Assembly: GCA_965217585.1 (NCBI GenBank)
Contig: OZ244561.1
Location: forward strand, 352,001-416,000
DNA: 64,000 nucleotides
From: Candidatus Latescibacterota bacterium
GTDB taxonomy: Bacteria; Latescibacterota; UBA2968; UBA8231
Reading direction: 5' to 3'
In this document: one piece after another, positions 18,889-55,664 of the stretch
Layout: every line of letters starts with the position of its first letter
How positions within the stretch are numbered: position 1 is the first letter of the stretch
The notes under the pieces: model-generated
What the model saw: the letters and a program-made list of their open reading frames with translations, nothing else
Database searches by the model: none
What the model was told of the DNA's origin: nothing
Made by a program: the position numbers and the translations under genes

Positions 18889-21525
18889 TTACAGCTCGCC
18901 GGTGGCGGCGAAGACCCGCATGAAGGCGATGGTTTCCATCAGGGGGTCATCCGCGTCCTTGAACTGCTTGCGTTCGCGTTTGAACCCGGCGTTGAGGGTG
19001 ATGTTGTAGCCTATATAGGCCGAGGTGTTGGAGACCAAAACGGCCCAGACGAAGTTGTCGAAGTCGCCTTCCTCGCCGGCCTGCACAGTCTCTTTGGCGT
19101 TGTCGAACTTGCTAAACTCAACCCCGAAATCCACCCACGTCCTGTCCAACAGACTGTAGCGGGCGAGCAGGAAGACAGTCCCCTCGTGGTCCCGCGACGA
19201 CCGCAGATCGAGGTCTGAGTGCCCACGGTTGCGGAAGGTGCTCTTGAACTTGGGCGACAAGGTCAGGGCGGCGCTGAGCGGATACTGGTAGTCGAACTTG
19301 TTGATCACTCCCAAGAAAGAGCGGTCGGCCTTGAGTTCGGCTTGCTTGCCCTGCTGGAAGTAGCGCTCGTACTTCAGCTTGGAGGTGAAGTGAAAACGGG
19401 CGATGGCGTTGTATTTTACAGAGGCGTAGAAGCTGTTGATGAAGGTGTCCTGCGCGTCGAGGGGGTCGTTGAAGGGCACCATGCCGTCCGGGTCGGTCCA
19501 GACGATCCGGTCGTCAAAGATAGTGTCCCGCACCTGCTTGCCGAGCTCAAAGACGGCGATTTGCAGCCCGGGATAATCCCACTCCGAGGTCAGCAGCGCG
19601 TAGGTCGCGTGATTCTCGCGGCCGCTGCTGATTTGGCGCTGCCGCAAGCGCCCGACCGTCAGGTTGGTGCCCTCGCGAAAGGCCACGCCACCGTACACAT
19701 TGTAGCCCGAGCGGTCGCGCTCATAGGGCAGGTCGGCTTGTAGGTCGTCCTCAAAGCGGTCGACGATGGTGTTGTTGTTCACGTCCATGCCGAAGAGAAA
19801 CTCCGGCGAATCGACCCGGTAGCGCAAAAACGCCTCGGCGTAGTCGGGCTTGTCGTTCTTGTTTTGGTTGAAGTCCGGGATGAAGTCGTTGTTCTCATCG
19901 AGCCCGGGAAAGACCTCGCGGTCGCCGCCGGAAGTCGAAGCCAATTCGGCGAACAGCACGTTAGCCCCGCCTTGGTCCGAGCGCAGCCAGTCCGGGGTCT
20001 GGTCTTGATCGTCGTTGTCATCGACGAACTCGAAAAGATAGCGGAAGGGCTGGTCGTAGCTGATGTTGCCAGAGCCATCGGCCATGTACGCGGCCGTGCT
20101 GTACTCTGGATCGAGATAGAAGGTTTCGCCGTAGCCGAAGAATGGGTAGCGGACGTACGAGGCCGTCAGGTAAAAGGCCTCGGAGGTTTTTTCGGTAGCC
20201 GGCAGCTTGCGGAAGTTCTGGTTGGGAAAGCGCTGGAAGCGCCGGTTGATCGCGTATTCGGTGCTGAGGTCAAACCCCTTGATATCTGTGACGTTGAAAT
20301 CCACACCCAAGATCTCGTTGGCCGTCGGCAGCCCGTACTCAAAGCGGAGGAAGTGCTGGTTCGACCCGTCGGTGATGTTGTTCTCGGCGTGGGCCACGGG
20401 CAGAAAGATGGGGCCGCCGAGGCTAGTGACCTGCTTGTTGGACGTTATTTCGACCCGGTAGTCGTTGGCCAAAATCAACTCAAACTCCAGCTTCTCAGCG
20501 TCCCGATACGTCGGGGTAGTCTCGGTCAGCTCGAAGTCGTTGCGAATGTCGTAGGTCAACAAAATCGCGTCCGTCCCCTTGGCCTTGAGGACCCCGTCCT
20601 CTTGCACGCCGCCCTCCACGAGGGGGACGATCTTGTTCTGCACCTCCCCGTCGATCAGGATGCGCTCGAGAAAGAGCACGGCCCCTTCTTCCGGCGATTC
20701 GGGCGAGTCATCCGAGATGCGGATGACCACTTCTTCTACATTGCCCTGGTTCTGCGGGCGAGTCAGGACGCCCTTGAGCGAGTTGTCGTCCAAGCTCAGC
20801 TCGGAATCAGCGTGGTGCGCGCTGACCCAAGTGATTCCCACCTTGCCGAAGTCGCCCACTTGCGCCACGCCCCGGCCCCCGAGGACCCGGGTGGAGTTCA
20901 GGGCCGTGTTGGCGCTGGAGAGCTGAGTTCTGGCGAGGCTGCCCGGGGCGCTGACCCGCGACCCCAAGAAGGTCGCGGCGTACTTGTCGGACAGGAAGTC
21001 CCACTGAATGCCGTTAAAGGCGGGCTTGGAAAAGGTCATCGGCGTCAAGGTCGTGCGGATTGCGTCGCCGATGGTGACGGCCGTGTGGAATTGCCCTTTG
21101 CTCGCCGAAGAGACGATGAGGTTGCTAAACCAAGAATTGAAGCGCGGGCTCTTAAAGAGCGAAGAGCCAAAGGAGCGCGGATTGGTCTCGGTCCAGTCGT
21201 AGATCTCCCAGCCGCGCGCGATGTAGTTGCCCAACGGGTCGTAGAGGCGCTCGCCGTTGAGCAGGGTCCCGACGTAGCGCTGGTAGGCTTCGCGGGCGTA
21301 GTTGCTGTACTCCCAGCCGCGCCAGCGGTACTCGTAGTACAAATTCTGCGGCAGGTACCACTTGCGAATCGCCGGGGCCAAGGCCCCGGGGTGGATGCGA
21401 GCGCCGACGATCCCAGGTTCGGAAATCTCGCGGTAGGGATTCGGCAATTGGGCCTCTGCCGCTGTCCCACAGGCCGCACTGACCACGAGCAGCCATGCGA
21501 TTCGCTCCAGTCCCTTCTTGCGCAT
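18889..21525 (-). CDS. Large secreted Asp/Asn-rich putative outer-membrane beta-barrel protein (paralog 1)
   Basis: Signal peptide. Shares WY..Q.LY.EY, RTTLTP.TF.K, LANDY, YGLPTAN, DNDDQD, DFNQN and PEFLFG.D.NNN with 50179 and 52935. Amphipathic beta-like C terminus. Confidence 0.7.
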   Translation of the reverse strand: MRKKGLERIAWLLVVSAACGTAAEAQLPNPYREISEPGIVGARIHPGALAPAIRKWYLPQNLYYEYRWRGWEYSNYAREAYQRYVGTLLNGERLYDPLGNYIARGWEIYDWTETNPRSFGSSLFKSPRFNSWFSNLIVSSASKGQFHTAVTIGDAIRTTLTPMTFSKPAFNGIQWDFLSDKYAATFLGSRVSAPGSLARTQLSSANTALNSTRVLGGRGVAQVGDFGKVGITWVSAHHADSELSLDDNSLKGVLTRPQNQGNVEEVVIRISDDSPESPEEGAVLFLERILIDGEVQNKIVPLVEGGVQEDGVLKAKGTDAILLTYDIRNDFELTETTPTYRDAEKLEFELILANDYRVEITSNKQVTSLGGPIFLPVAHAENNITDGSNQHFLRFEYGLPTANEILGVDFNVTDIKGFDLSTEYAINRRFQRFPNQNFRKLPATEKTSEAFYLTASYVRYPFFGYGETFYLDPEYSTAAYMADGSGNISYDQPFRYLFEFVDDNDDQDQTPDWLRSDQGGANVLFAELASTSGGDREVFPGLDENNDFIPDFNQNKNDKPDYAEAFLRYRVDSPEFLFGMDVNNNTIVDRFEDDLQADLPYERDRSGYNVYGGVAFREGTNLTVGRLRQRQISSGRENHATYALLTSEWDYPGLQIAVFELGKQVRDTIFDDRIVWTDPDGMVPFNDPLDAQDTFINSFYASVKYNAIARFHFTSKLKYERYFQQGKQAELKADRSFLGVINKFDYQYPLSAALTLSPKFKSTFRNRGHSDLDLRSSRDHEGTVFLLARYSLLDRTWVDFGVEFSKFDNAKETVQAGEEGDFDNFVWAVLVSNTSAYIGYNITLNAGFKRERKQFKDADDPLMETIAFMRVFAATGEL

Positions 21526-21548
21526 CTTAATCCCTCTCGATTGGGCAC

Positions 21549-23870
21549 TCAGTAGGCGAGGCCGATGGTCCGGGTGATTTGCTGTTCATCGGACTGGGTT
21601 TGCAGGCGAATTCGGCACAGGTACAGCCCGGGGGCTGCCCGGCCCTGTGCGCCATCCGCGCCCGACCAAGTATAGACGTAGTAACCATCCGGCCCGCGGT
21701 CGCCCGCCAACTTTTGCACCAACCGCCCGTCCAAACTATACAGGGCGACCTCGGGCACCGCATCCACATTGAGGACCTGAAAGCGGATCTGCGCTTGGTC
21801 GCCGATCTCGTCCCCGTTGGGGGTGGCGATCCGGGGGTGGATCGAGACATTGTCGAGCAAGCGATCCGGGACGGCGGGAAAAAATACATGGGTCGCCCGG
21901 GGGGTGTGCGCCGCTGGGTTCACTTCCTGCCAGAGGCCCGGACGCGCCGCTTCGCCGATGAACGCATTGAAGCGCGTGGGGTTGCGGTCTATCTGCGTGC
22001 GCAACCGCACCGCCACAGTGTCCGCGGGCTGCTCTATGGCTTGGGGAAGCTGAATCACCAACGAGTCGCTGGTAATGAGTTCGATTTGCGCCGCAACCTC
22101 CGCGCCACCCACTGTAACTTGCAGTTCGTCGGCATGAGACGGGGTGGTAAAGAGGAGCCGATCAAAGCGAGCCGGATCCGCGAAGTCGCCCCATATCTTG
22201 TAGGTAAAGGTCTCGGGCTTCCCCGGCTGGGCCGTCTTGGGGTGAATTTCGCCCTCGGCTCCGCGCAGTACGGCGTCGGTGAAGTTCACGTCCAGCCGAC
22301 GCATAGTTGGCGCAACTTCGGGCCGGTCGGAGCGCAGGGTCAGCTTGATTTGCAAGAATCGCCGCGGGCTGGGCGAGAGGAACTGGCCCAGCTCTCGGTA
22401 GGGCGCGCTCCACGGGCTCCAGTCGGCACCGGCGACGACGAGGGTATCCGTATCGCCGCGCAGGAACTTGTTGAGGTCCTCGTACTCGGCCTTACCTGCC
22501 AGCGGCGACCCATCCAATTTGTAGTAGAGGACCTCTTCGGTCAGCTCGTACCCGGTGCGGGTGACGACCTCTACTTGGGTGCCTTCCGGCGTGGCGGCGT
22601 CCCAGAAGATGCCTTGGATCTGCTTTGCGCGTAGGTCGCCAGCAAAAGCGCCGAGGTCAATGAAGTCGGATTCTAGCTCCACTTCGGCGAAATGCCCGGT
22701 GGGGACGACCATGAGTTCGGCCATGTCCCCGTTTGCACCCACGTAAATGGCGGCGAGATAGCGAATCGCCTGGGGCTTGGCCATGATGTACTGGAAGTCG
22801 ATGTCGGAAGACCGGTCGTTGTCGTCGTATAGCTGGTCGAAATCGAGGTCGCCCGTCAGGGTCAGGCTGCCGTCTGAAGCCAAGAGCCGATGGTCGTTGA
22901 CGCGGGCATACGACACCCCATATCCCGAGTCGGCCAAGCCCGTGGTGTTGGCACCGATCTGGAGAATGCGCTTGACCCACACGAAGGTACCCATGTCCAA
23001 GATCCACACCGTTGGGTCCTCCGCGTCGCCGTGTACGGCCCAAGAGCTATTAAAATCGCCGTCAATCAGGTCTGTGCCACGGCCCGTCTTGTCGAGGAGG
23101 CTGCCGCCGCGCGCGAGCGAACCCAAGGCCACATTGCTGCCAAAGGTATAGGCTTCCAATTCGGCCAAGGCCGCGTTCTCGCTCTTGCTGTCTATCTTGA
23201 TCCGAATGTATTGCAGCGTGCGGTAGGTCGGGTCGAATACTTGGGTATCAGCTGCGTCTTGGAACAGAACCCGAGTGCTGATGTCGGGCAGGGGCGCGAG
23301 GTCGTATTCGACCGTGGTTTGGTCGTTAAAGCGGGTGGTGCCCCCGAGGGTTTCGTAGTAGAAGAGGTTGGCCTGAAAGGAACGCCGCTGCCCGTCCGAG
23401 CCCATGACGCGAAACTCCCTGAGCGGCCGGCCACCTGCGGCGTCTGGAAATACCAAGCGGATGCGGGTGACCGGGACGGCGCGGCCCAAGTCGAGCTCGA
23501 TCCACCAATCGTCCAAGTCCGCGGCCGGGTCGGGTTTCCAATAGGTCGCCGGGTCCCCGTCGGCGATGTTATCGGCCCTGAATTGGGCACCGGGCGCGGT
23601 TGAGCCGACCCGCCAGATGCCGCCCTGAATCTCCTCGGCGTTGGCCAGCTTGTGGGTGAATTGTCCGGCGTCGAGTGCGGCGTTGATGTCGTTGGCAAAC
23701 TTCGCCGGGACAAAAGAACCATCCGCACTAAATTCAATGGTGCCAGGGGGAATTTTCCACTCTTCCCACTGCGCCTGCTGCTCGACTCGGTACACTTGCG
23801 ACTCTTGGCCTCCAACCGACCCCAAGCCGGCGAGGACGAGGCCGCAAGCATACGTTGCAATGCGTGTCAT
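21549..23870 (-). CDS. Secreted double-discoidin-like protein with FlgD/CHU_C-like C-terminal domain (subtype I)
   Basis: GAGGAG RBS before ATG 23870. DGDPATYW..WIELDLGR, WSPWSAPY, SPSPRRFLQ, TPNGDEIGD...PGLYL. Confidence 0.8.
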   Translation of the reverse strand: MTRIATYACGLVLAGLGSVGGQESQVYRVEQQAQWEEWKIPPGTIEFSADGSFVPAKFANDINAALDAGQFTHKLANAEEIQGGIWRVGSTAPGAQFRADNIADGDPATYWKPDPAADLDDWWIELDLGRAVPVTRIRLVFPDAAGGRPLREFRVMGSDGQRRSFQANLFYYETLGGTTRFNDQTTVEYDLAPLPDISTRVLFQDAADTQVFDPTYRTLQYIRIKIDSKSENAALAELEAYTFGSNVALGSLARGGSLLDKTGRGTDLIDGDFNSSWAVHGDAEDPTVWILDMGTFVWVKRILQIGANTTGLADSGYGVSYARVNDHRLLASDGSLTLTGDLDFDQLYDDNDRSSDIDFQYIMAKPQAIRYLAAIYVGANGDMAELMVVPTGHFAEVELESDFIDLGAFAGDLRAKQIQGIFWDAATPEGTQVEVVTRTGYELTEEVLYYKLDGSPLAGKAEYEDLNKFLRGDTDTLVVAGADWSPWSAPYRELGQFLSPSPRRFLQIKLTLRSDRPEVAPTMRRLDVNFTDAVLRGAEGEIHPKTAQPGKPETFTYKIWGDFADPARFDRLLFTTPSHADELQVTVGGAEVAAQIELITSDSLVIQLPQAIEQPADTVAVRLRTQIDRNPTRFNAFIGEAARPGLWQEVNPAAHTPRATHVFFPAVPDRLLDNVSIHPRIATPNGDEIGDQAQIRFQVLNVDAVPEVALYSLDGRLVQKLAGDRGPDGYYVYTWSGADGAQGRAAPGLYLCRIRLQTQSDEQQITRTIGLAY

Positions 23871-23881
23871 AGCTCCTCGCT

Positions 23882-25963
23882 TTAGTAGGCCACGGCAATG
23901 GGCACAGTCGTGGCAAACCGACCCCGGCCGCTGTCGATGGCGACCTGACACAAGTACAGGCCCGGTGCTAATAGGCGGCCGCCCTCGTCGCGGACGTCCC
24001 ATTCTATAGGCGGGTTGGTACCCGCTTTCTGATCCGTCGCCAGCAGGCGGCGCACCGGCGCGCCCGCTAGGGTGTAGAAAGCTACCTCCACCTCGGCGTT
24101 GAGCACCCCAAAGAGCGCGTAGCGAATGTGCAGACGGTCGTTGTTGCCATCGCCATTCGGCGTCAGAATCCGGGGCTGGATGTGCAGGTCGCCTATGGAT
24201 TGAGCAATGTCGCTCGTGGCCACGATCTGGAGCTGATCCGTGTGGATGCGGTCGGTGGCATTGCCCGCCTTGACGAACTGGCGCGCATGACTTGCCGCGC
24301 GGTTAAAAACCGCCCCTTGGAGCTGCGCGGAAATCGTATAGAGTGCGGTGCGCAAGCCAATGTGCAGTTCCGCATCCGTTGCAATCGGCTGGGGCAAATG
24401 CAGGGTCAGGCCGGTCTCATCGAACACGACGGCGTCGCGCTCCAGCGCCATGGTCTCTGGGGGGCTGCCAATGGCCAAGCCCAAAAACTCCGGTTGCGAA
24501 GGGGTCTGGACGCGCACGGCGTCAAAGCCTGCACCGGACTGATCGCCAAACTCGGCGCGAATGGCGTAGGTCAGGTCAACCGGCTCGCCAATGGGCACTT
24601 CCATTAGAGAGACCGCGAGAGGGTCATCTACTACGCCCACCTCGCCGACGAGGTCTGGCACGAGCAGGGGCAGCAGCTCTAGGCGCAGCGAATCGAGCCG
24701 CGCGACATCGGTTGGCCGGCGCGATGTCATTTCGACTAGCACCTGAAAGTAGCGACCGTGGTCGAGGCTGAGTGGCGCTCCCGGCGCGCGAACCGGACTC
24801 GACCACGGAGTCCACCGCTCGCGGTCTTCGGCCAAAGGGCCTTGCCAGCCGACGAAGACCGGGTCGTAAGGCCCTTGGCGTTCCTTGAGGGTCCGCCAAG
24901 TGGCGAAGTCCACTTCGTCTAGTTCGCCTTGGTCGTTGTATGTAAAAAACAGGCGCGGATCGTCCGTGCTGCCAGTCTTGATGCGCACCCGCACCTCGGC
25001 GTCGGCGTCTGGAGCTGCGACGAGCGCACCCTCTTGCCAGCGCTGATTTGCGCCCCATTGCCCCCCCTGCCGACGCCACTTGCTGACGGCCATCGACACT
25101 TGGCCCAAGATGGCCGGCTGCCCCAGATCCACGACCTTGGACTCGTAGCGGGACTCCGCGGCAAAACCCCGGCCGTATAGCTCAAACTCAGCATAGGCCA
25201 GCTTGGCAATGGTCAGCACGCCTTCGGCTTGGTCGAAAAAGGGGCCTTGGCCGTTGTCGGGGAAACTCCGCCAGCGCACGTAGCGGAAGTACTGCAAGGG
25301 AAAGGTGATCTCAATAGGCGCGACGAGGTTGCCCTCTATGCGGCCGAGGACCTTGTCCAAGGGGACGTAGCGAGTATTGTACGTGAACTGGCCTTTGTCC
25401 TCCGTGGGGATTTGCTCGCCGAGCAAGGTGGCGGAAAGCTCGCCCTGCCGCGGCACGTAATTTTCCCAAGGTTCCCCAAACAGATCCGTGGCCCCGGACG
25501 GAGGCAGGCGGAGGACGAATCGCTCTAGCGGCAGCGGCGTGCCTGGGTCAATGGTGTAGAATTCGTTGGAGGTTTTATTGCCGCCGGGGCCGAAATTGGT
25601 CACCCACTGGAAGGTGTTGATAGCGCCGTCAACATAGCGTAAAAAGGGCATCATCACTCCGGGATGCCCCAAGTTGCCCAAGCCCCGCCACAACCGGGGC
25701 ATGCCATTGACCCACAGTGGATTGGGCGGGTCGCGCCAGCGTTCAAAGGGGAACTGGGTAAAGATGCTGGGCAAAATATTGACGTCCGGCCGCAATTCCC
25801 GCGGCTGCAATGCACCCGGTACGCGGGCATCGTCGGCGAGGACTTTGAGTTGCGCCCATTCTTCCCAAGATTGACCACCCTGCCCGCCAAAAGCCCACTC
25901 CTGTCCCCGCGCTGGAATCGACCCCACCAGCAAGGACAAGAGTACTATACCCAGAAGCTGCAT
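23882..25963 (-). CDS. Secreted protein with FlgD/CHU_C-like C-terminal domain (subtype IV)
   Basis: Signal peptide; AEFELYGRG, S.VVDLG, WTPWS, TPNGDGNND...WD..D..G..LAPGLYL. Confidence 0.8.
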   Translation of the reverse strand: MQLLGIVLLSLLVGSIPARGQEWAFGGQGGQSWEEWAQLKVLADDARVPGALQPRELRPDVNILPSIFTQFPFERWRDPPNPLWVNGMPRLWRGLGNLGHPGVMMPFLRYVDGAINTFQWVTNFGPGGNKTSNEFYTIDPGTPLPLERFVLRLPPSGATDLFGEPWENYVPRQGELSATLLGEQIPTEDKGQFTYNTRYVPLDKVLGRIEGNLVAPIEITFPLQYFRYVRWRSFPDNGQGPFFDQAEGVLTIAKLAYAEFELYGRGFAAESRYESKVVDLGQPAILGQVSMAVSKWRRQGGQWGANQRWQEGALVAAPDADAEVRVRIKTGSTDDPRLFFTYNDQGELDEVDFATWRTLKERQGPYDPVFVGWQGPLAEDRERWTPWSSPVRAPGAPLSLDHGRYFQVLVEMTSRRPTDVARLDSLRLELLPLLVPDLVGEVGVVDDPLAVSLMEVPIGEPVDLTYAIRAEFGDQSGAGFDAVRVQTPSQPEFLGLAIGSPPETMALERDAVVFDETGLTLHLPQPIATDAELHIGLRTALYTISAQLQGAVFNRAASHARQFVKAGNATDRIHTDQLQIVATSDIAQSIGDLHIQPRILTPNGDGNNDRLHIRYALFGVLNAEVEVAFYTLAGAPVRRLLATDQKAGTNPPIEWDVRDEGGRLLAPGLYLCQVAIDSGRGRFATTVPIAVAY

Positions 25964-25978
25964 GGCATTCGACCTTGG

Positions 25979-27904
25979 TTAATAGACGACTGCAATCGCG
26001 CGCGTATGGGCGAAGTCCTGCACATTGCCTTCCACCGCAACCCGGAGCAAATAGATGCCGACCGGGACGACTTGCCCCGCATGATCCCGGCCATCCCACC
26101 TTTCGCTGTACACCCCGCGGCCGCGGACCGCGCTAACGGCGTACACGCGCTGACCCGCGAGGGAAAAAATCTCTACCCGGTTGGGCAATTCCTCTAGAAT
26201 TTGGAGGACGTCGTAGCGGATTTCGATCTCGTCGTTAATGCCGTCGCCATTGGGCGAGATCACCGATGGATAGACCTCCAGAAAGGGTAGGATGGTACTC
26301 CGCGACTCCGCCGAGGTCAGGACTTGGAGCTTGTCGGTGGTCACCTGCTGGCTGGCGTTGTCCGGTAGCACCGGCTGGGGGAGTTCCTCGCTCTCGGTAT
26401 CGAAGACCTCGCCGTGAAAAAAGGTCGATTGCACCAATAGCTGGGCATTGAAGACCACCCGCAGCGAGGTCGTGGAGTCAACCCGATGCCCAGGGAAAAA
26501 CAGCGTCAGGGCCTTTGCTTCTTCCCGCACGCTATCTGGGACCACAGTGGTCAAGGCGTCTTCGCTGGGACCGATGAAAAGCTCGGTGAACTGCGGCTGC
26601 GTCGGAGTCGAAATCCGCAAGGCGTCAAACCCCACATCCCCACCAGTGACCGCGGCGCGCACGTCATAGACAAAGGGCGAGGGAACCCCTACGGGTACGA
26701 CTGCGAAGCCGCTGCTAGGGTCGGGGTCGCCCAACAGGGATATCTCGCCCACCAAGCCCTGCGCGAGGGGAGCGGCGATTTCGATCCCGAGGTCCTCGAC
26801 GCGGATCCCATCGAGGATCGACCTGCTCTCCATGACGACCCGGAACTGCACGTAACGTCGCGGGCTGGGCAGGACAACCTTGTGCCCCGATTCAGTAAAG
26901 GGGGCCGACCAGCGGCTCCAATTGATCTGGTCGTCCTCAAAGCCGGCTTGATCGTCTTTGGATAGCGCGTTGTACTCTTCCTCGGTGACGGGTGTCTGTT
27001 CATCGAGGTAGCGATTGGTGACCTCGTAGAAGGTCAGCGGGGTGTCGTCCAGCCCAGACCGCATCTGAATGGTTGCCGAGGCCATGGCCGCGGGTTCTTC
27101 CACCAAGCTATCGCCGACGACGCGGACTTTTGCAGCGCCGAAGTTCAGGGTCCCGAAATTGACGGGCGCGCCCAAGTCGATGACCTCAGAGCGATATTCG
27201 CCCCGGGGCACGAAGCCTTCGCCGTAGAGTTCGATTTCGGCAATCTCAAAGGGATTGGTGGCCGTGATGCGCAGTAGGATATAGCGAACGAAATCGAGTT
27301 CAAACTCGACGACCGAAACGCTGTCGCGGGAGAATTCCACTTTCTTTATGGGATCGCCGTAGATCGGCTGCCCGTCAGTGCCAAAGCTCAGGCCGTCGTT
27401 GACATAGAGTTCGTAGCCGCGGATATAGTCTGACCACAGCGGCTTGCCGCTGGAATCTAAGCCCGTGAGCCTTGGGTAAAAGACGATCCGGTTCAGGGGA
27501 AAGCGGCTGCCCAAATCGAGGAAGAAGCGTTTGCCGGCTTGGCTGGAGCCAAAGACCTTGAAGCGGTCTTCGGTAGAAGTGTTGGGGTCGCCATCGACGA
27601 TGGGGAGATCCGACTTTTTGAGCGGGTAATTGTTCCAGATGCGGGCATTGGAGCGGATGATGTCGAATCCATCCCGCGGTATGCCATCTACCCAAGAGAG
27701 CGTAGAGGTGATGTTTTCCCCCGGCCGAAAGCCAGCGATCTGGATGGCGTTGGGCACATCGAAATCAATGGCCGTAGAAGCCTCTGCCACGGATTTCCAG
27801 TTCCGCCCGCCGTCGTTGATTTGCCACAGCGTCACCTCAGCGCGGGCCGCGCTCCCAAGGCTCAACACCAGAACTGGCAGGCAGATTAAATGGCGTAGTC
27901 GCAT
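25979..27904 (-). CDS. Secreted discoidin-like protein with FlgD/CHU_C-like C-terminal domain (subtype II)
   Basis: Signal peptide from MRLRHL. LDLGSRFPLNRIVFYPR, RGYELYVNDG, EIELYGEGFVP, SPNGDGIND, WDGRD. Confidence 0.8.
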   Translation of the reverse strand: MRLRHLICLPVLVLSLGSAARAEVTLWQINDGGRNWKSVAEASTAIDFDVPNAIQIAGFRPGENITSTLSWVDGIPRDGFDIIRSNARIWNNYPLKKSDLPIVDGDPNTSTEDRFKVFGSSQAGKRFFLDLGSRFPLNRIVFYPRLTGLDSSGKPLWSDYIRGYELYVNDGLSFGTDGQPIYGDPIKKVEFSRDSVSVVEFELDFVRYILLRITATNPFEIAEIELYGEGFVPRGEYRSEVIDLGAPVNFGTLNFGAAKVRVVGDSLVEEPAAMASATIQMRSGLDDTPLTFYEVTNRYLDEQTPVTEEEYNALSKDDQAGFEDDQINWSRWSAPFTESGHKVVLPSPRRYVQFRVVMESRSILDGIRVEDLGIEIAAPLAQGLVGEISLLGDPDPSSGFAVVPVGVPSPFVYDVRAAVTGGDVGFDALRISTPTQPQFTELFIGPSEDALTTVVPDSVREEAKALTLFFPGHRVDSTTSLRVVFNAQLLVQSTFFHGEVFDTESEELPQPVLPDNASQQVTTDKLQVLTSAESRSTILPFLEVYPSVISPNGDGINDEIEIRYDVLQILEELPNRVEIFSLAGQRVYAVSAVRGRGVYSERWDGRDHAGQVVPVGIYLLRVAVEGNVQDFAHTRAIAVVY

Positions 27905-27992
27905 TATCTTTTGCTTGGGTGTTGTGCCTTCGGCCGGTAAATTTGCCAAAAGCCACCACCCCAAACGACGAAGATGCCCGCCGCCGACCACC

Positions 27993-29309: not shown

Positions 29310-29345
29310 GCGGTCTGCTCATCGACCGTCCTATCTGTACTAGCC

Positions 29346-31738: not shown

Positions 31739-31750
31739 CAGGAGGCCAAC

Positions 31751-43760: not shown

Positions 43761-43789
43761 TTGATTTGCTGTTTGAATTTCCGTATAAA
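43761..43789 (+). promoter_or_regulatory. Sigma70-like promoter upstream of a long structured leader
   Basis: TTGATT, 17 nt, TATAAA. Confidence 0.5.
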
Positions 43790-43791
43790 AA

Positions 43792-43995: not shown

Positions 43996-44060
43996 ATGGA
44001 TGAAAAGAGGTGGGGAGGTTGTTTGTGTTTCGCTATTCATCATTGAGAAAGGAAAAAACA

Positions 44061-44948: not shown

Positions 44949-44984
44949 AGTCATCCTTCACGCCCGAGGAGATAGCCATTTTCT

Positions 44985-45018
44985 GCCGCCTAGCACATAT
45001 CCCAATGTGCTAGGCGGC
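44985..45018 (+). terminator. 14-bp hairpin after the TTWGRIK gene (terminator or mRNA-stabilising stem, no U-tract)
   Basis: GCCGCCTAGCACAT/ATGTGCTAGGCGGC. Confidence 0.55.
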
Positions 45019-45044
45019 CTCCTATAAGCTGAAGAGTTTCACGG

Positions 45045-46994: not shown

Positions 46995-47132
46995 AGCCTC
47001 TACCTCTGGTACATTTTTGCTTTTTTGCGCAGATCTGCTACCGGCACTCCACTCCCTCTTCTATTCGCGCCTATCGCTAACCAGCCGCGCCCAAAGCAAA
47101 ACCTATACGGATTTCTCTGAGGGAGGGTACAA

Positions 47133-47999: not shown

Positions 48000-48011
48000 A
48001 GAGGCCGCTGG

Positions 48012-50117
48012 ATGAAGATTTGTTTCTTCCTCGCGGTTGCGCTTTCGTGGTCGGCTGCCCTGGCACAGACCATCACCGTTGGCCAAGGTCCGCGCCAGTG
48101 GCAGGACGGAGGCGGAGGGCTTGACCCGCAGTTCCCCGTATCGACCACCGAACTCGCCACCGGCAACACCCCGGGCGGCGTCATCGATTTCGCGTTCGAA
48201 TCCGGGTGGATCTTCCTGGAGCAGATCGATCCCGGCAGGAATCTGGCTTTGGGTGCGGAGGACAGAGGGGGGGGAATGAACTCTCCCCTGCCCTCGATCT
48301 CCGATAAAGCGCTGGAGGCCATGATAGACGGCAAGCCGGAAACCGCTTTTCGCCGCAAGGCTACGACGGCCGGAGAGTTAGTCATCGCCCGCGGCATCAT
48401 CATGGATTTGGATCTGGGCGCGCGCTTTGGCGTCAACCGGATCCGGTTCTTTCCGCGCAACACAGTGCGCGAGGCCCGGGAGTTCAAGTTCGAAAACGAC
48501 TTCATGCGAGGCTACTCCCTGGCCCTGAACGACGGCAGCGAGGAGACCTCTGTAGAGGGCCGACCTCAGTACCTCAATCTCATAAGGGTGGAGGACAATA
48601 TCGAAGCGGTCGTCGATCTGGAAATCCCGCTCCAGTACGTGCGCTTTATCCGGCTGAAGTCGGAGTCGAATATCGGTTTCGAGGTCGACGAAATCGAGAC
48701 CTACGGCTCTGGTTTCGTGCCCGAAGCCCAGTACCTGTCCGACATCTTCGACCTGGAGGATCTGGCCATCTGGGGCAACCTGCGCTGGGCCGAGCGCCGC
48801 GAAGGTGTACCCGGGCTTTCGGCTATCCGCGTTTTCACGCGCTCGGGCCGGGACGAAACGCCCTACGTCTTCAACCGGCTGAACGCCAATCAGCTAGGCG
48901 TGCCTTGGAAGGCGGATGCCGAAGTCGACGAAATCCTCCTGGACGCCCTGCCCGTTGACGAGGCTTTTGACCTGTTCAATTCCCAGCCCCAAGCGACTAG
49001 GCAAAACCTCATTCTCTCCCAAGCCGACTACGAAGGTCTAGCAGACCAGCAAAAAGCACCCTTGAGAGACGACGTGATCAACTGGAGCACTTGGTCTCCC
49101 CCCTATCCGGCAGAGGGGCGGAGTGCGGTGGGGACCCCCATCATCTCGCCTGGACCGCGGCGCTACTTCCAGTTCAGAATCGACTTTGCCAGCCGCGACC
49201 TGAGTTCGGGCAGCGGCGTTGATTCCCTGTCCTTCGACTTTGCCAGCCCAGTGCCGGCCGAGCGCATCGTCGGCGAAATTTTTCCCAGGGATGTGCCGGC
49301 CGGAGAGGTGGTGGAATTCACCTATGGAATCTGGGCCGGTCTCCGGCCGCAGGACACTAGCTTCAATCGCTTTGAGATAGCCACGCCGAGCATACTCGAA
49401 GAGATCGGCCGGATAGAGCTGCGCGATGCGCAGGACAATCTCATCCAAGGAGAGGATCTCGCGGTCCTACTTAGCGAGATACAGCCCCCCTTTATCAAGG
49501 GCGATTTCAGTATCGAGAGCACGGCGGACGGCCGCGTCGTCGTCGGTTTTCCGGAATTGACCAACGGCGATCTGCTCAAGATCACCTTCAAAACCTCGGT
49601 CCTGAGATTTGGGCAGACCTTTGCCGGCCGCGCCTGGCTCGCGGACCCGGCGAGCCAAGAAGGTGCCCAGCTACCTCAGCAAGTCGTGCCGGGCAACGCC
49701 GCCCAGCTAGCGCCAGATGATGTGGATCCGCGCCCGGTGGGCAGCGAAGATCTGACCTTGGTGGATAATAGCCTCTCGGTGCGCACGGCCATAGAGGGTT
49801 CGCTGCTCGGCCAGATCCGGGCAGTACCCCCAACCTTCACGCCCAACGGGGACGGGGTCAATGATACCACGGTTATCCACTACGACGTGCTGCGGCTGGG
49901 CGTGGCCGCCCCGCTGAGGGTAGAGATCTATGACCTGAGCGGCCGCTCAATCGCCGCCTTCGCCGGCGACCGGGCGAGCGGCCGCTTCTCGAGTTCGTGG
50001 GACGGGATCGATTCGAACGGCAACGCAGTGCCGCCCGGCATCTATCTATTCCGCGTTTTCCTCGACACCAATGCAGGCTCTGACGCAAAGACCGGGGTCG
50101 TTGGGGTGGTGTACTGA
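48012..50117 (+). CDS. Secreted discoidin-like protein with FlgD/CHU_C-like C-terminal domain (subtype II)
   Basis: Signal peptide; LDLGARFGVNRIRFFPR, RGYSLALNDG, EIETYGSGFVP, SPGPRRYFQ, FTPNGDGVND, WDG.D. Confidence 0.82.
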   Translation: MKICFFLAVALSWSAALAQTITVGQGPRQWQDGGGGLDPQFPVSTTELATGNTPGGVIDFAFESGWIFLEQIDPGRNLALGAEDRGGGMNSPLPSISDKALEAMIDGKPETAFRRKATTAGELVIARGIIMDLDLGARFGVNRIRFFPRNTVREAREFKFENDFMRGYSLALNDGSEETSVEGRPQYLNLIRVEDNIEAVVDLEIPLQYVRFIRLKSESNIGFEVDEIETYGSGFVPEAQYLSDIFDLEDLAIWGNLRWAERREGVPGLSAIRVFTRSGRDETPYVFNRLNANQLGVPWKADAEVDEILLDALPVDEAFDLFNSQPQATRQNLILSQADYEGLADQQKAPLRDDVINWSTWSPPYPAEGRSAVGTPIISPGPRRYFQFRIDFASRDLSSGSGVDSLSFDFASPVPAERIVGEIFPRDVPAGEVVEFTYGIWAGLRPQDTSFNRFEIATPSILEEIGRIELRDAQDNLIQGEDLAVLLSEIQPPFIKGDFSIESTADGRVVVGFPELTNGDLLKITFKTSVLRFGQTFAGRAWLADPASQEGAQLPQQVVPGNAAQLAPDDVDPRPVGSEDLTLVDNSLSVRTAIEGSLLGQIRAVPPTFTPNGDGVNDTTVIHYDVLRLGVAAPLRVEIYDLSGRSIAAFAGDRASGRFSSSWDGIDSNGNAVPPGIYLFRVFLDTNAGSDAKTGVVGVVY

Positions 50118-50178
50118 AATTTTCGGGTGCGCTCCACGCAGATCACTGACAAAGGCAATACCTGTGGAGGGATTCTCT

Positions 50179-52920
50179 ATGCGTAGCAAACACTGGTTGA
50201 CTCATCTGCTGGCAGGCGGGCTACTCCTCGCGTGCCTAGATGGGGTCTGGGCGCAGGATTACGGCACCCGCTTGGGGGTGCAGCGCGGGGGTCGAGTCTC
50301 GTACGAACCGCAGGGACCGGGCGTGCTCTTTGGCGCTCTGGATCCCACGGTCAAGCGCTGGTATGTGCCCCAAGAACTCTACAACGAGTACCGCTGGCAG
50401 ACGTGGCAGTACACCAACTACGCGCGCGACAATTACCAGCGCTATGTATCCACGGCCCTCGAAGGCGATTACCTCTATGACCTGTACGGCAACTTCGTCA
50501 CTCAGGGCTGGCTGATTTACGACATGCGCCGACAACAGCCTTCAGAGTTCGGCAGCACGGTTTTTAAAGACAGTCGTTACGGCGGCTGGTTCAACCGCGT
50601 CCTCATCGCTTCGGACACCAAGGACCAGTACCACTACGCCGTGACTATCGGAGACCGCATCCGCACGACCCTGACGCCCCTGACCTTCTCGAAACCGGCC
50701 TTCAGCGGCATCCAAGCCGACTTCGCCTCAGACAAGTACCAAGCCACGGTCCTCATGTCGCGCATCAGCAATCCCAACCCTCCTACCAGCGTCGGGGTGA
50801 CGGGCATAACCAATACCACCGACTTCGTCGGCGGCCAGCTCACCAGCCAACTCGGCGATTTTGTCACCGTGGGCGCCACCTACCTCAACGCCCATCACTC
50901 TAATACCCTGCTGGAGAGCTTTGTCGGCAGCCGCTTTAGGGGCGACCTCACCGTCGACCAGAACGGCACCGCCATCAATCGGATCGAAATCGTGCTCGAA
51001 GACGACTCGCCTGAAGACGGAGAAGGCGGGGCCGCGCTGTTCTCGCAGAATGTCATCATCACATCGGTCGAGGACTTCGGGACCCTCGGCCGCGAGACCG
51101 TCACCGGCAAGGAGATCAACTTTGTCCCCCTCATCCAGGGCGGTTTTCAACGGCAGGGTTTTCTCGCCGCCGACGGGGATGAGAGCATCCGCCTGATCTA
51201 CGATTTCTCCGACCGCTCGTACTCGGGACCCGATCCGGCGACCATCGTCGAGGTCAGCTTCGAATTAGTGCTGGCCAACGACTACAAGGTGTCGATGACC
51301 TCGAACAACCAGCTCGACAAAAGAGAAACCCCACATCCACTGGAGATTGCCCGGGCCGACGGCAATGTGCGCGACACTTCAAACCAGCAGGTGGTGCGCT
51401 TCGCTTACGGTCTGCCCACGGCCAACCAGATTTTCGGCTTTCACCTGAAAACGACCAATCTACTCGGTTTCGACACCTACGCCGAATACGCCGTCAACCA
51501 CCAGTTCCGCAAGTATCCCAACTCCACTTTGGGTGAGCTGAACGAGGAACACGAGTCGGCCGCTAGGCGGGCGGAGGCCTGGATAGTCAATGTGTCGAGG
51601 AGTGAATATCCCTTGTTCGCGTACGGCGAGGCCTTCAGCATGGAAAGGCACTATGCGACCAGTATTTTCCTCAGCGACCAACGAGGCTCTTTTGACTACT
51701 CGACTAGGACTAGGTTATTCGAATTCGTCGAAGACAACGACGACCAAGACCGCATCCCCGACTGGGGGCGCTCGAACCAGATTGGCCCCGACATTGAGGT
51801 CTTCCCGGGCTGGGACGAGAACAACGACTTCATCAACGACTTCAACCAGAACGACAATCGGGTGCGGGAAAACCAAATTCCCGACTACGAAGAGCCTTTT
51901 TTGCGCTATCACAGCGATCGCCCCGAATTCCTCTTCGGCATCGACTTGAACAACAACGGCTGGATCGACCGCTTTGAGAACGACGAGCAGCCCGACTTTC
52001 CCTACAAGAGGGACCACCGAGGGTACAATGCGTATGGCGGCATCCATTTGATGCCGGAAGCGCGCTTGACCGTGGGGCGCACTCGGCAGTGGCTGCTCTC
52101 CGCGAATCAGCGCAACGAAACCAATTACGCGCTTTTCACTTTTGACCGGGACATCGCCGGCTTTGGGCGCATACGGGTTTTCAACTTCCTGAAAAAGGCG
52201 CGCGACAACATAGCCGACGACCGCATCGCGCCCCTACCCTATTTCAAAGGGCCGCAATTGCCCGTCAAGGACATCCTGCCAGCGCAGGACACCTATATCA
52301 ATACCCTGTGGCTGGGATTTGACTACACCGGCATCCCCTTCTTAAAGGTGGAGAACAAGCTCAAGTACGAAATCCTGCACCAGTTGCTCGCGGAGGAGGC
52401 CCTGGCCGAGCAGAGCGCCCGCAAGGACGCGCGCTTTTTCGGCCTGATCAACAAAGCCGCGTATTCGCTGAACCTACTGGGCGTGAATTTTCTGCCGCGA
52501 GTTAAGAGCGAGTACCTAGTGGATCAGCCCTTTCTCAGGACGGAAGACAAACGCAAACAGTGGTCGCCGAGTTTCTTTCTCATCACCCGTCTGCCACTGA
52601 TGCCGCACACCCAACTCGAGGCTGGCCTAGAACAGAGTTTCAAATGGGAGTTGCGAGCCGCCGAGGACGAACTGGTGGATTTGCAGGCCGAGGGAGTGGA
52701 GACCGGCGATTTCGGCGAGACTATCTTTGCGGTCCAGACCACCAATACCACCAACTATCTGGGCTACAAGTTGGTCACCCAACTCGGGTTTCTGTACGAG
52801 CGCAGAAGTCTGGAAGTGGTGAAAAAAAGGGCCGTGGCAGGCGCTGAAGACGTCTTCGAACTGGGGGATCGGATGGCGACGGGTTTCACCACCTTTATCA
52901 CGATTTACGCCGGCCTCTAG
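50179..52920 (+). CDS. Large secreted Asp/Asn-rich putative outer-membrane beta-barrel protein (paralog 2)
   Basis: GGAGG RBS, signal peptide, QDYGTRLG. Family motifs as in the 18889 gene. Ends FITIYAGL. Confidence 0.72.
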   Translation: MRSKHWLTHLLAGGLLLACLDGVWAQDYGTRLGVQRGGRVSYEPQGPGVLFGALDPTVKRWYVPQELYNEYRWQTWQYTNYARDNYQRYVSTALEGDYLYDLYGNFVTQGWLIYDMRRQQPSEFGSTVFKDSRYGGWFNRVLIASDTKDQYHYAVTIGDRIRTTLTPLTFSKPAFSGIQADFASDKYQATVLMSRISNPNPPTSVGVTGITNTTDFVGGQLTSQLGDFVTVGATYLNAHHSNTLLESFVGSRFRGDLTVDQNGTAINRIEIVLEDDSPEDGEGGAALFSQNVIITSVEDFGTLGRETVTGKEINFVPLIQGGFQRQGFLAADGDESIRLIYDFSDRSYSGPDPATIVEVSFELVLANDYKVSMTSNNQLDKRETPHPLEIARADGNVRDTSNQQVVRFAYGLPTANQIFGFHLKTTNLLGFDTYAEYAVNHQFRKYPNSTLGELNEEHESAARRAEAWIVNVSRSEYPLFAYGEAFSMERHYATSIFLSDQRGSFDYSTRTRLFEFVEDNDDQDRIPDWGRSNQIGPDIEVFPGWDENNDFINDFNQNDNRVRENQIPDYEEPFLRYHSDRPEFLFGIDLNNNGWIDRFENDEQPDFPYKRDHRGYNAYGGIHLMPEARLTVGRTRQWLLSANQRNETNYALFTFDRDIAGFGRIRVFNFLKKARDNIADDRIAPLPYFKGPQLPVKDILPAQDTYINTLWLGFDYTGIPFLKVENKLKYEILHQLLAEEALAEQSARKDARFFGLINKAAYSLNLLGVNFLPRVKSEYLVDQPFLRTEDKRKQWSPSFFLITRLPLMPHTQLEAGLEQSFKWELRAAEDELVDLQAEGVETGDFGETIFAVQTTNTTNYLGYKLVTQLGFLYERRSLEVVKKRAVAGAEDVFELGDRMATGFTTFITIYAGL

Positions 52921-52934
52921 CCGAGGGTTGAGCC

Positions 52935-55664
52935 ATGATACGCGAGACAATCTCCACACTTGCGCTACTGGCGATCGCGGGGACCAGCGTCGGCGCCCAG
53001 GACTACGGCAATCGCCTAGGCCAGGGGCACGGCGAAGACGTGCAATTCCCGACCACGGGCCCTAGTATGCTCTCCGATGCGCTCGATCCCCGGGTGCAGA
53101 AATGGTACTTGTCCCAGGAACTCTACAGCGAATACCGTCTGAATCAGTGGTCGTACACCAACTATGCCAGGGACTTCTACCTGCGCTACCTGCAGCCGGG
53201 TCTGGAAGGGGACTACTTCTACGATCTGTTTGGCCGCCGCATCATGCACGGGTGGTTGATCTACGAGGCGAGAAAAGAACAACCCCGGGCCTCAGAGGGC
53301 AACAGCCTGCTCAAGTCCCCGCTCTACGGTAGCAATTTCCAGAATTTAATCATCTCTTCCGATGCCAAGGGACAGTACCGCTACGCCCTAACCATCGGCA
53401 ACGAGATGCGCACCACCCTCACGCCGATGACTTTCAACAAGGCCGTCTTCAACGGCATTCAGTTCGATTATCTGGCCGACCGCTACGCCGGGACCGTGCT
53501 CCTCTCGCGCGTCAGCGCGCCGCTGGTGGCCACCTCGGACTTTGGCGTGGGACTCACCAACGCCACGGAATTAAAAGCCGGACGGGCGACCGTCCAAGTC
53601 GGCGACCACGTCACCCTCGGCGGCACCTACGTCAACACCCACAACAGCCGCGCCACCTTGGAGCGCTTTGCGGGCAATATGTTCAAGGGCTTTCTCACCA
53701 CCGATCAGGCCGCCAACGCCGTTTCCTTTGTGGAAATCCGCCTGGGTGACGATTCGCCCGCAGACGGCGAGGGTGGGGCCATTCTCTTCGCCGAGAACGC
53801 CATCCTCAAGGATGTCACTGGCCATACTTGGGAAAGCACCCAAGTCGGTTATACCCCGGTGCGGACGGGCGGCCAGTTGCGCGACGGGTTTCCCGTGGCG
53901 GACGGCAACGAGCGCATGACCCTGCGCTACAACCTAGAGACCCTGGCCGCGGCGAGAATTGTGCAGGTCGATGGCGAGCCCACCTTATCACCCACCACGG
54001 TCGACTCCCTCGCCGAGGTGCGCTTCGAGTTGGTGCTGGCCAACGACTACCGGGTCGAGATCACTTCGGACCGCCAGACCAACATAGAGGGCCAACCGGT
54101 CTTCCTGCCGGTGCAAAGCGCTCCGAGCAACGTCAAGGACACCTCCAATCGGCGCACCGTGCGTTTCGATTACGGCCTGCCCACGGCCAATCAGATCGCT
54201 GGTTTCACCGTGGAGGTCAATGAATTGTGGGGCTTCAATCTGTACGCGGAAATGAACGTCAACCACCGCTTTGTCCAATATCCCAGCCCGCTACTGGAGA
54301 CCCATCGGATCGCCGCGCAGCGGGCGAATGCATGGATGGTCAATCTGTCGCAGATTCGCTCCCCCTATTTTTTTCACCTCGAAGCTTTCAGCATGGATCC
54401 AGAGTACACCACGAGCATCTTCATGACGGAGACCAACGGGAGGACCGACTTTGCCGACGAGGAGACCTTTTTCTACGACTACGTCGACGACAACGACGAC
54501 CAGGACCGCTTTCCGGATCAGAAGCGCCGCTGGCAGTCAATCTCGCTGAGCGGCAGCCAGAGCGGCGAAGGAGCGGCCGATCCGGCCGTATTCCCCGGTT
54601 GGGACGAAAACGGCGACTTCATCTCCGACTTCAACCAGAACGACAACCTAGCGCGCCGCAACTCGATTGCGGACTACGAGGAGCCTTTCCTGCGCTTCAG
54701 CGTCGACCGGCCGGAATTTCTCTTCGGCATCGATCTCAACAACAACGGTTGGATCGACCGCTTCGAAGACGACGCCGACCCGGATTATCCCTACGACCGG
54801 GACCACCGGGGCTACAATGTATACGGCGGCGTCGACGTGCTTCCCCAGGTGCGCCTGACCGCGGGGCAGACGCGGCAGTGGCTGCTGTCCTCGGGCCGGC
54901 GCAGCGAGGTGGCGTACGGGCTTTTCACCTTTGAGCGCGATTGGGCCGCCTTCGGCAGGCTGCGCGTCTTTGAGCACTTGAAGAAAGTGCGCGACAACAT
55001 AGCCGACGACCGCATTGCCGCGCCGAAATTCTTCCGCGATCCCCAGTCTACAGTGGAAGACCCGCTGCCGGCCCAAGACACCTGGATCAATACATTCTGG
55101 CTGGGCTTTGACTACACGCGCCTAGCGCCATTGTACCTGTCCAACAAGTTCAAGTACGAATTCCTCCACCAGCGCGACAAACAACCAGTACTCGACGCGC
55201 GCGGCGCGCGGCGCAATGCGCGTTTTGTTGGCTTGATCAACAAGGCGGATTACGGCTTCGATGTCGGCGAGTTCCACATCAGACCGCGTCTCAAAAACGA
55301 GTTCTTCTCGGACGTCCCCTACCTACAGGAGGAGGAGAAACGCCAGTGGTGGAAGCAGATGCTGTCCCTCAGCGTCAAATTCCCGATCCTCAAGCGCTCG
55401 TGGATCGAGACGGGTCTGGAGCAGGTATTCACCACTGACTTGCGGGCGGACGAACATGCGCTGGAAGAGGGGATGCGCACGGGGGATGCGCGACAGACGG
55501 TTCTGGCGTTGCAACTGACCAATTACGGGACCTACGTGGGCTATCGCTCGATCATGCAGTTCGGCCTGCGCTACGACCGGGACCGCTTTGCGCGCCTCGG
55601 CCGGAAGTCCGAGATCAAGACGGGCAGCCTCGTCTTTCTCTCCTTCTACGCAGGTCTGGAATAG
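52935..55664 (+). CDS. Large secreted Asp/Asn-rich putative outer-membrane beta-barrel protein (paralog 3)
   Basis: Signal peptide and QDYGNRLG; same family motifs. Ends FLSFYAGLE. Confidence 0.72.
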   Translation: MIRETISTLALLAIAGTSVGAQDYGNRLGQGHGEDVQFPTTGPSMLSDALDPRVQKWYLSQELYSEYRLNQWSYTNYARDFYLRYLQPGLEGDYFYDLFGRRIMHGWLIYEARKEQPRASEGNSLLKSPLYGSNFQNLIISSDAKGQYRYALTIGNEMRTTLTPMTFNKAVFNGIQFDYLADRYAGTVLLSRVSAPLVATSDFGVGLTNATELKAGRATVQVGDHVTLGGTYVNTHNSRATLERFAGNMFKGFLTTDQAANAVSFVEIRLGDDSPADGEGGAILFAENAILKDVTGHTWESTQVGYTPVRTGGQLRDGFPVADGNERMTLRYNLETLAAARIVQVDGEPTLSPTTVDSLAEVRFELVLANDYRVEITSDRQTNIEGQPVFLPVQSAPSNVKDTSNRRTVRFDYGLPTANQIAGFTVEVNELWGFNLYAEMNVNHRFVQYPSPLLETHRIAAQRANAWMVNLSQIRSPYFFHLEAFSMDPEYTTSIFMTETNGRTDFADEETFFYDYVDDNDDQDRFPDQKRRWQSISLSGSQSGEGAADPAVFPGWDENGDFISDFNQNDNLARRNSIADYEEPFLRFSVDRPEFLFGIDLNNNGWIDRFEDDADPDYPYDRDHRGYNVYGGVDVLPQVRLTAGQTRQWLLSSGRRSEVAYGLFTFERDWAAFGRLRVFEHLKKVRDNIADDRIAAPKFFRDPQSTVEDPLPAQDTWINTFWLGFDYTRLAPLYLSNKFKYEFLHQRDKQPVLDARGARRNARFVGLINKADYGFDVGEFHIRPRLKNEFFSDVPYLQEEEKRQWWKQMLSLSVKFPILKRSWIETGLEQVFTTDLRADEHALEEGMRTGDARQTVLALQLTNYGTYVGYRSIMQFGLRYDRDRFARLGRKSEIKTGSLVFLSFYAGLE

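Follow-up and report, generated by a model that had tools for sequence, protein, structure and literature searches.

A large, undescribed family of predicted outer-membrane β-barrels forms the membrane core of a repeated surface module in a Latescibacterota genome

We analysed a stretch of 64,000 nt from the genome of a Candidatus Latescibacterota bacterium (contig OZ244561.1, positions 352,001 to 416,000 of the forward strand), here called the window, and in it three genes that encode related proteins of 878 to 913 amino acids (aa). Structural modelling indicates that the three proteins are large outer-membrane β-barrels, whose fold class is settled and whose family is not. The barrel family is large and undescribed, and the barrel is the membrane core of a surface module repeated roughly 50-fold in this genome. 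The barrel genes lie beside genes for one family of surface proteins, called T1, that carry a C-terminal sorting domain (CTD). We tentatively propose that the barrel is a carrier or anchor for the T1 proteins, PorP/SprF-like in function and outside that family. The three barrel genes, each an open reading frame (ORF) across the coordinates given, are:

18889..21525, minus strand: barrel family member P0001, 878 aa, of the 'single-copy locus' clade
50179..52920, plus strand: barrel family member, 913 aa, of the 'first of tandem pair' type, which clusters with other pair-first genes
52935..55664, plus strand: barrel family member P0003, 909 aa, of the 'second of tandem pair' clade; this protein was modelled

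By sequence comparison, the three ORFs are paralogues with 39–51% identity. They align over their full length, with P0001 43% and 40% identical to the other two and the tandem-pair barrels 51% identical to each other, and their within-genome tblastn and HMMER E-values range from 0 to 1e-176, far beyond chance. The eight motif blocks that a first-pass annotation, made from the sequence alone, had listed as common to the three proteins are all invariant columns in the three-way alignment. The C-terminal ends are also as it described them (IYAGL, FYAGLE and VFAATGEL), with a long β strand (residues 890–908) as the last modelled element of P0003, and all three N-termini are signal-peptide-like when judged by eye, in line with its claim of signal peptides. 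The second barrel gene lies inside a longer ORF with a start at 50071; the start at 50179 is the more plausible because it yields a normal signal-peptide-like N-terminus.

We modelled P0003 with AlphaFold2 from a 70-row alignment (mean predicted local distance difference test score, pLDDT, 74; predicted template modelling score, pTM, 0.73). The model has about 25 long antiparallel strands, assigned by DSSP at residues 138–239, 359–487 and 624–908, and since an even strand number is expected, the barrel probably has 26, with one strand from the unmodelled N-terminus. The acidic insert (residues 488–623) and the aromatic-rich N-terminal region (residues 15–136) are poorly modelled (pLDDT below 50). 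When the model was compared with the PDB by Foldseek, every listed hit was an outer-membrane barrel; the best were SlpA (30 strands; E 2e-8), MtrB, LptD, XusA, FimD and SusC (E from 2e-8 to 1e-4), with template modelling (TM) scores of about 0.2 (0.17–0.26 for large barrels). A VIA-align comparison with 48,161 chains reached Z-scores up to 13.5, and its top hits (Z of 11 or more) were all outer-membrane or organelle β-barrels, among which no single barrel family stands out. The long strands and the fold matches thus bear out the outer-membrane barrel proposed in the first-pass annotation, and the proteins show the features of that class: a signal-peptide-like N-terminus, long amphipathic strands in antiparallel order, connections that are short and long by turns, and the matches themselves.

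Counted back from the C-terminus, the connections in P0003 alternate between a short set (2, 2, 6, 5, 3, 2, 2, 2) and a long set (2, 12, 8, 14, 28, 5, 136 and 10 residues). By the usual rule for outer-membrane proteins, this alternation would place both the acidic insert and a β-sandwich-like insert outside the cell. The conserved N-terminal region is possibly a plug or a periplasmic contact. A candidate TonB-box stretch within this region was dropped, since the segment is conserved only moderately (0.39–0.48) and the barrels have no Plug domain. The parts of P0003 and the acidic loops are located as follows.

53088..53342, plus strand: conserved aromatic-rich N-terminal region of P0003 (residues 52–136), pLDDT below 50, not confidently modelled
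53652..54008, plus strand: β-sandwich-like insert of P0003 (residues 240–358), short strands in DSSP, predicted outward-facing loop
54396..54803, plus strand: acidic insert of P0003 (residues 488–623), between strands 478–487 and 624–636, low model confidence
54492..54518, plus strand: first acidic loop NDDQDRFPD of P0003 (residues 520–528); N520 in 73/75 paralogues, D522 in 75/75, D524 in 74/75, D528 in 72/75
54603..54635, plus strand: second acidic loop DENGDFISDFN of P0003 (residues 557–567); D557 in 75/75, N/D559 in 75/75, D561 in 74/75, D565 in 75/75
54732..54767, plus strand: third, EF-hand-spaced loop DLNNNGWIDRFE of P0003 (residues 600–611); D600 in 75/75, N602 in 70/75, N604 in 75/75, D608 in 75/75, E611 in 75/75
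51943..51978, plus strand: EF-hand-spaced loop DLNNNGWIDRFE of the first tandem paralogue, placed by sequence coordinates
19750..19785, minus strand: EF-hand-spaced loop DVNNNTIVDRFE of P0001, placed by sequence coordinates

The acidic insert is the best-conserved part of the family, with column conservation of 0.59–0.74 at residues 561–620 across 75 full-length paralogues from this genome. The acidic loops of the DxNxD/DxDxD type noted in the first-pass annotation are present as three [DN]x[DN]x[DN]xxxD loops, whose residues are conserved in 70–75 of the 75 paralogues. The third loop (D-x-N-x-N-x-x-x-D-x-x-E) has the canonical EF-hand ligand spacing of 1, 3, 5, 9, 12, and because this spacing is complete, calcium binding is a reasonable reading of the loop and the insert probably binds calcium. 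The likeness to EF-hands is confined to spacing, however: the P0003 model shows no flanking helix-loop-helix (pLDDT below 50 in the insert), the position-6 glycine is present in only 33/75 barrels, and the first and second loops do not have the position-12 glutamate. For biochemical work, the conserved calcium-type loop offers a simple target.

No Pfam or NCBIfam family matches any of the three barrels at E ≤ 0.01, and no PDB sequence matches either P0003 alone or a 70-sequence family profile at E ≤ 1, which agrees with the earlier remark that the family was not recognised. Neither a soluble or periplasmic structure nor a full-length match to a characterised family was found, the two outcomes that the first-pass annotation had named as speaking against an outer-membrane barrel of a new kind. 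We also found no paper on the family. The nearest named ESM Atlas cluster is DUF6029 (0.89), which Pfam does not confirm and which is a lead only. Relatives are nevertheless numerous. A word-indexed protein search gave 659 matches at E ≤ 0.001 among 7,999 candidates scored, and an exhaustive search matched 681 cluster representatives (50% identity), 179 of them at E ≤ 1e-30; where the databases give a name at all, it is 'hypothetical protein'. The metagenome-assembled genomes of these relatives are labelled Latescibacterota or Gemmatimonadota, the latter probably by mislabelling, and a small number of distant members have the label Ignavibacteria or Bacteroidota.

Among 151 sampled genomes of the phylum, 93 have a barrel match. 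The barrel is present in all 63 genomes of the window's own family (f1) and in none of the genomes of its two sister families (0/30 in f2 and 0/19 in f3), and T1 gives the same counts in these three; over 14 families of the phylum, T1 and the barrel follow nearly the same pattern. A FastTree phylogeny of 75 full-length paralogues unites all seven 'second of pair' genes of the main clade in a single clade with support 100 and sets the 'first of pair' genes apart; P0001 falls in a clade of six single-locus genes. Because pair-first and pair-second genes form separate groups, the sequences indicate that the tandem pair is an old duplication propagated as a unit, and this suggests that its two barrels have distinct roles or act together.

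A profile search for the family across the whole genome, a single contig of 7.32 Mb, found 81 ORF pieces, corresponding to 79 genes in the non-overlapping gene set (two are split), arranged in 50 loci. Immediately upstream, on the same strand, 40/79 barrels have a CTD/T1 gene and 20/79 have another barrel, and a CTD gene lies at most three genes away from 71/79. Viewed from the other side, 103/242 CTD genes lie within three genes of a barrel (about 7% by chance) and 124/244 within five (chance about 11%). The CTD proteins that adjoin barrels form one family by their bodies, T1, with 151 genes of which 116 are within five genes of a barrel; in the CTD family next in size, 2/23 genes are near a barrel. 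The arrangement recurs in other genomes, where 72 of 74 related loci have a CTD gene beside the barrel, 44 have a gene for the secreted protein c4 and 43 have a peptidyl-prolyl isomerase (PPIase) gene, both described below.

The T1 proteins combine sugar-binding domains with a sorting domain. A profile of the T1 type of about 640 aa matched CBM32/F5-8 type C domains in the PDB (7jnb, 1.5e-6) and FlgD-like Ig domains at the C-terminus, with nothing matched for the middle part of about 300 residues; single T1 sequences matched the FlgD-like C-terminal domain alone. All T1 types have the CBM32-like domain. By Pfam, the larger T1 proteins have an F5/8 type C domain, and CHU_C (a type IX signal) and FlgD_ig are above threshold at the C-termini, where the domain carries a TPNGDGxND motif. 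The T1 genes of the window are:

21549..24002, minus strand: T1 surface protein with F5/8 type C and C-terminal sorting domain, directly upstream of P0001
23882..25963, minus strand: T1 surface protein with C-terminal sorting domain
25979..28096, minus strand: T1 surface protein with CHU_C-type C-terminal domain (CHU_C 38.7 bits, cut-off 27)
41656..43647, plus strand: T1 surface protein, 663 aa
45045..46994, plus strand: T1 surface protein, 649 aa, with CBM32-like region and CHU_C/FlgD_ig C-terminal domain
48012..50117, plus strand: T1 surface protein, 701 aa, directly upstream of the barrel pair
55677..58196, plus strand: T1 surface protein, 839 aa, with F5/8 type C and C-terminal domain, directly downstream of the barrel pair
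58248..60101, plus strand: T1 surface protein, 617 aa

The longest ORFs at 21549–24002 and 25979–28096 open with basic, non-signal-like extensions, and the former overlaps the ORF at 23882–25963 by 121 bases; the true starts of these two genes are probably internal Met codons before the signal peptides. One CTD protein, at L004:75-2255 (+) beside a locus with three barrels, has a tail resembling type A, which contains a PNPFNP motif, gives a weak Por_Secre_tail hit and ends in SLIK; in the other CTD proteins the tail is TPNGDG...VVY.

The first-pass annotation had proposed the barrel as the best candidate for a core translocon or scaffold. The core-translocon proposal does not stand: a type IX secretion system (T9SS) is encoded elsewhere in the genome, with a single SprA_N match in a 2153-aa frame and a PorU sortase (627 bits) that has a PorV-like gene beside it, outside the barrel loci. 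The marks of SprA/Sov, namely the SprA_N profile and a single barrel of >2000 aa per genome, are absent from the barrel family. A family of about 79 copies in 50 loci is therefore not a single core machine part; the barrel is not the core pore of the secretion system, and its copy number fits a cargo-specific partner. A scaffold role is possible.

The favoured reading, in which the barrel carries or anchors T1 proteins, would work as follows. A T1 protein, with an N-terminal CBM32-like sugar-binding domain and a CTD of the T9SS type-B/CHU_C kind, would be exported through the cell's single T9SS. The barrel encoded by the adjacent gene would then receive the protein and hold it at the surface, as PorP/SprF-like barrels do for type B cargo in Bacteroidota, with two outward inserts, the β-sandwich and the segment of three acidic, probably calcium-binding loops, serving as the docking platform. 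Each barrel would thus be the membrane-embedded partner of a gene module present in about 50 copies. Two reports (PMC9143113, PMC12618676) describe type B cargo as binding a cognate PorP/SprF-like outer-membrane barrel, often encoded beside it, and as needing that barrel for both secretion and surface anchoring. We favour this reading because the gene order is as in Bacteroidota type B systems, the genome encodes a T9SS, and PorP/SprF genes went undetected; searches of the genome with PF11751 and TIGR03519 gave no match, and the control genomes were also silent, so that absence is not shown. Like PorP/SprF, the barrel is encoded by genes that adjoin those of type-B-like CTD proteins, has many cargo-specific paralogues per genome, and occurs in a host with SprA, PorU and a PorV-like gene. 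Most likely, it works like a PorP/SprF carrier-anchor without being one. As carriers or anchors, the barrels would represent a second, structurally distinct way of holding type IX cargo on the cell and would extend T9SS biology beyond Bacteroidota. We found no paper that joins Latescibacter with type IX secretion.

Several results weigh against this reading. The gene linkage is to T1 and not to CTD proteins generally, since only about 8/93 non-T1 CTD genes lie within five genes of a barrel; what the barrel recognises may be the T1 body instead of the sorting domain, or barrel and T1 body may have a common function. The T1 C-terminal domain scores below the NCBIfam cut-offs for both type A and type B (TIGR04131). 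A locus has 2–4 T1 genes per 1–3 barrels, and gene counts do not settle the stoichiometry. The co-occurrence of T1 and barrel is discordant in families f7, f8, f10 and f14, and the number of independent lineages is small. The orientation of the inserts comes from a model with pLDDT below 50 in the insert and the N-terminal region. The barrels have no sequence relation to PF11751 or TIGR03519 and are about three times larger, at 878–913 aa and about 26 strands compared to roughly 300 aa (the profile models have 273 and 292 positions). SprF, as described in PMC12635249, has a conserved Cys-x-Cys in its periplasmic C-tail that links it to GldK, whereas the barrels have no cysteine in any alignment column that is invariant or close to it, and their tails end in YAGL or AATGEL. 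The barrels also differ from PorP/SprF in carrying a β-sandwich insert and an acidic insert and in having 2–4 cargo genes per locus. A complex prediction of P0001 (residues 27–878) with the 100-residue C-terminal domain of its upstream neighbour, run without controls, scored 0.00 and is evidence neither way.

T1 is one of several recurrent partners, which emerged when genes no more than four positions away from a barrel were clustered. The secreted protein c4 (about 310 aa) has 32/47 copies within five genes of a barrel (chance about 11%), and its model (pLDDT 77) matched family 9 carbohydrate-binding modules (1i82, E 1.5e-7, target-normalised TM 0.73). It ends in a conserved tag, TAVExxSWGRIKxxF, which occurs 51 times in the proteome. 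In 38 proteins, of which 29 are c4, the tag forms the very C-terminus, and it may be a docking or sorting signal. The small lipoprotein c6 (about 250 aa, lipobox LAGC) has 18/22 copies within five genes of a barrel (chance about 10%). LptD and MtrB each enclose a partner protein in the barrel lumen, LptE in the case of LptD; by analogy, c6 could be a lumen plug or partner of the barrel, and such an arrangement would suit the c6 gene that follows P0001. The module thus brings together a large barrel and several secreted proteins of the sugar-binding kind. Barrels and partners together fill a large share of the 7.3-Mb genome (about 79 barrels, 151 T1, 47 c4 and 45 SurA-like chaperones), and none of these four is named in any family library.

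Other readings of these loci share much of this evidence. It is unlikely, in our judgement, that the barrel is the nutrient channel of a locus resembling those for polysaccharide utilisation, in which T1 (CBM32-like) and c4 (CBM9-like) proteins would capture glycans, the barrel, gated by its conserved N-terminal segment, would admit the fragments, and DUF6785 or an ABC transporter would perform the inner-membrane step; this role could coexist with anchoring, as in SusC with its surface lipoproteins. The expansion to about 79 genes in 50 loci is of the SusC kind, the copies lie in loci with surface sugar-binding proteins and often with a tetratricopeptide repeat (TPR) protein and an inner-membrane transporter, the partner proteins have sugar-binding folds, and the fold hits include SusC, XusA and sugar porins. 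A DUF6785 membrane protein is encoded within six genes of the barrel in 28/50 loci, its nearest named look-alikes in the ESM Atlas being peptide/OPT transporters (0.79; a lead only), sugar ABC transporter genes and sugar-acid-type enzymes lie near some loci, and a tie to T1 rather than to all CTD proteins fits a channel as well. Unlike SusC, however, the barrels have no Plug or TonB_dep_Rec domain by Pfam, and the genome's ordinary TonB-dependent receptors, about 19 in number (20 PF00593 matches in non-barrel genes), are separate from them. Their partners carry T9SS-type C-terminal domains instead of lipoprotein anchors, and no glycoside hydrolase or lyase, nor any other carbohydrate-active enzyme, was recognised among the 25 recurrent neighbour types scanned. 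Moreover, only 24/73 DUF6785/DUF6784 genes are within five genes of a barrel (chance about 11%), and an unenergised pore of about 26 strands would have to be tightly plugged; the model shows no plug. If the barrels do also conduct substrates, the loci would represent a novel type of locus for nutrient capture in a phylum without cultured members.

Two further proposals assign the barrel to export or to structure. A dedicated pore that translocates or assembles T1, like an usher or a two-partner-secretion (TPS) pore, would come close to the translocon of the first-pass annotation, with one pore per module and not per cell; the SurA-like PPIase would be its periplasmic chaperone and the Ig-like C-terminal domain its targeting signal. 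The cargo gene directly upstream, the association with T1 specifically rather than with all CTD proteins, the 30/45 SurA-like PPIase genes within five genes of a barrel (chance about 10%), and the presence of FimD/PapC ushers and FhaC/CdiB among the fold hits are all consistent with such a pore. We nevertheless consider it quite unlikely: the T1 C-terminal domain looks like a T9SS signal, the genome has what appears to be a complete T9SS, Pfam and NCBIfam detect no usher, POTRA or TPS domain in the barrels (nor, by Pfam, the OstA domain of LptD), and the fold hits are generic barrel matches with TM-scores of about 0.2. Highly improbable, in our view, is a role as an abundant structural pillar like SlpA of Deinococcus, by which a surface layer or matrix would be fastened to the membrane, with calcium stiffening the outer face and the T1 linkage reflecting joint assembly of a surface coat and not a carrier function. 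SlpA, an S-layer-anchoring barrel, is the best Foldseek hit, and the calcium-type loops are conserved. LptD, MtrB and SlpA (26–30 strands) share the size class of the barrels and are their best whole-chain Foldseek matches (E 2e-8 to 7e-6), but they have no sequence similarity to them, and TM-scores of only 0.17–0.26 (0.21–0.26 in the comparison that favours the pillar) point to a shared barrel fold alone. The barrels also have no OstA, SLH, coiled-coil or cytochrome partner domain, and fifty diversified modules fit specificity better than bulk structure. A broader idea, which we regard as doubtful, is that barrel, T1, c4, SurA-like chaperone and DUF6785 together make up an unrecognised envelope machine, either for TonB-independent glycan capture and import or for a self-contained chaperone-and-pore display. 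Such a machine, duplicated and diversified about 50-fold in one genome, would be the Latescibacterota counterpart of the polysaccharide utilisation loci of Bacteroidota.

The remaining partner genes in the window are:

14881..16776, plus strand: DUF6785/DUF6784 polytopic membrane protein, a recurrent neighbour
16783..18123, plus strand: TPR protein of a recurrent neighbour type
18120..18875, minus strand: small lipoprotein c6, lipobox LAGC, no family match, directly downstream of P0001
44061..44948, plus strand: secreted protein c4, CBM9-like fold, conserved C-terminal TAVExxSWGRIKxxF tag
60129..62333, minus strand: DUF6785/DUF6784 membrane protein (436.9 bits)

We found no paper that mentions DUF6785. 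The SurA-like PPIases have two rotamase domains and about 570–650 aa (for example L001:14527-16479 (+) and L002:12384-14138 (+)), and 45 paralogues of a periplasmic chaperone are an unusual number. TPR proteins recur among the barrel neighbours, and the scan of 25 recurrent-neighbour representatives also returned PhyH, amidohydrolase, enolase-superfamily, ABC transporter, metallo-β-lactamase (MBL)-fold and GDSL proteins, among others. A gene for an MBL-fold hydrolase lies between two T1 genes in the window (47133–47999, plus strand), and the same gene (289 aa) occupies the equal place in the orthologous loci L005–L007. A distant sub-family of barrels occurs in triple-barrel loci (L003 and L004; G000 C1:3752001-3770100 and 7029801-7049300), where the order is the barrels, a TPR protein of about 1085 aa with a YfiO/BamD-like part, DUF5683 or c6, a CBM9-like protein, DUF4159 and DUF6785.

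Four RNA libraries, which come from two studies, have contigs with sequence nearly identical to the locus; sponge metagenome is the label of two of the four. One contig of 8,045 nt (X17) covers c4, two T1 genes, the MBL-fold gene and most of the first barrel of the pair. In X15, X16 and X18, contig depth over c4 (window 44000–45450) is several-fold to ten-fold above that over the T1 and barrel genes (45450–57000); such contigs may contain DNA and are unfit for ranking genes. Beyond about 57000 there is little or no contig cover in X15, X17 and X18, gaps which prove nothing. Together, the contigs hint that the locus is transcribed, and unevenly.

At the end of the window, an FG-GAP repeat protein gene (62465–64000, plus strand) extends past its last base; of 56 FG-GAP genes in the genome, 15 lie near barrels. 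Among metabolic genes in the first part of the window are an AAA_14/DUF4143 ATPase (2427–3704, plus strand) and a Schlafen AlbA_2/HATPase_c_4 protein (13703–14893, plus strand), both unrelated to the barrels.

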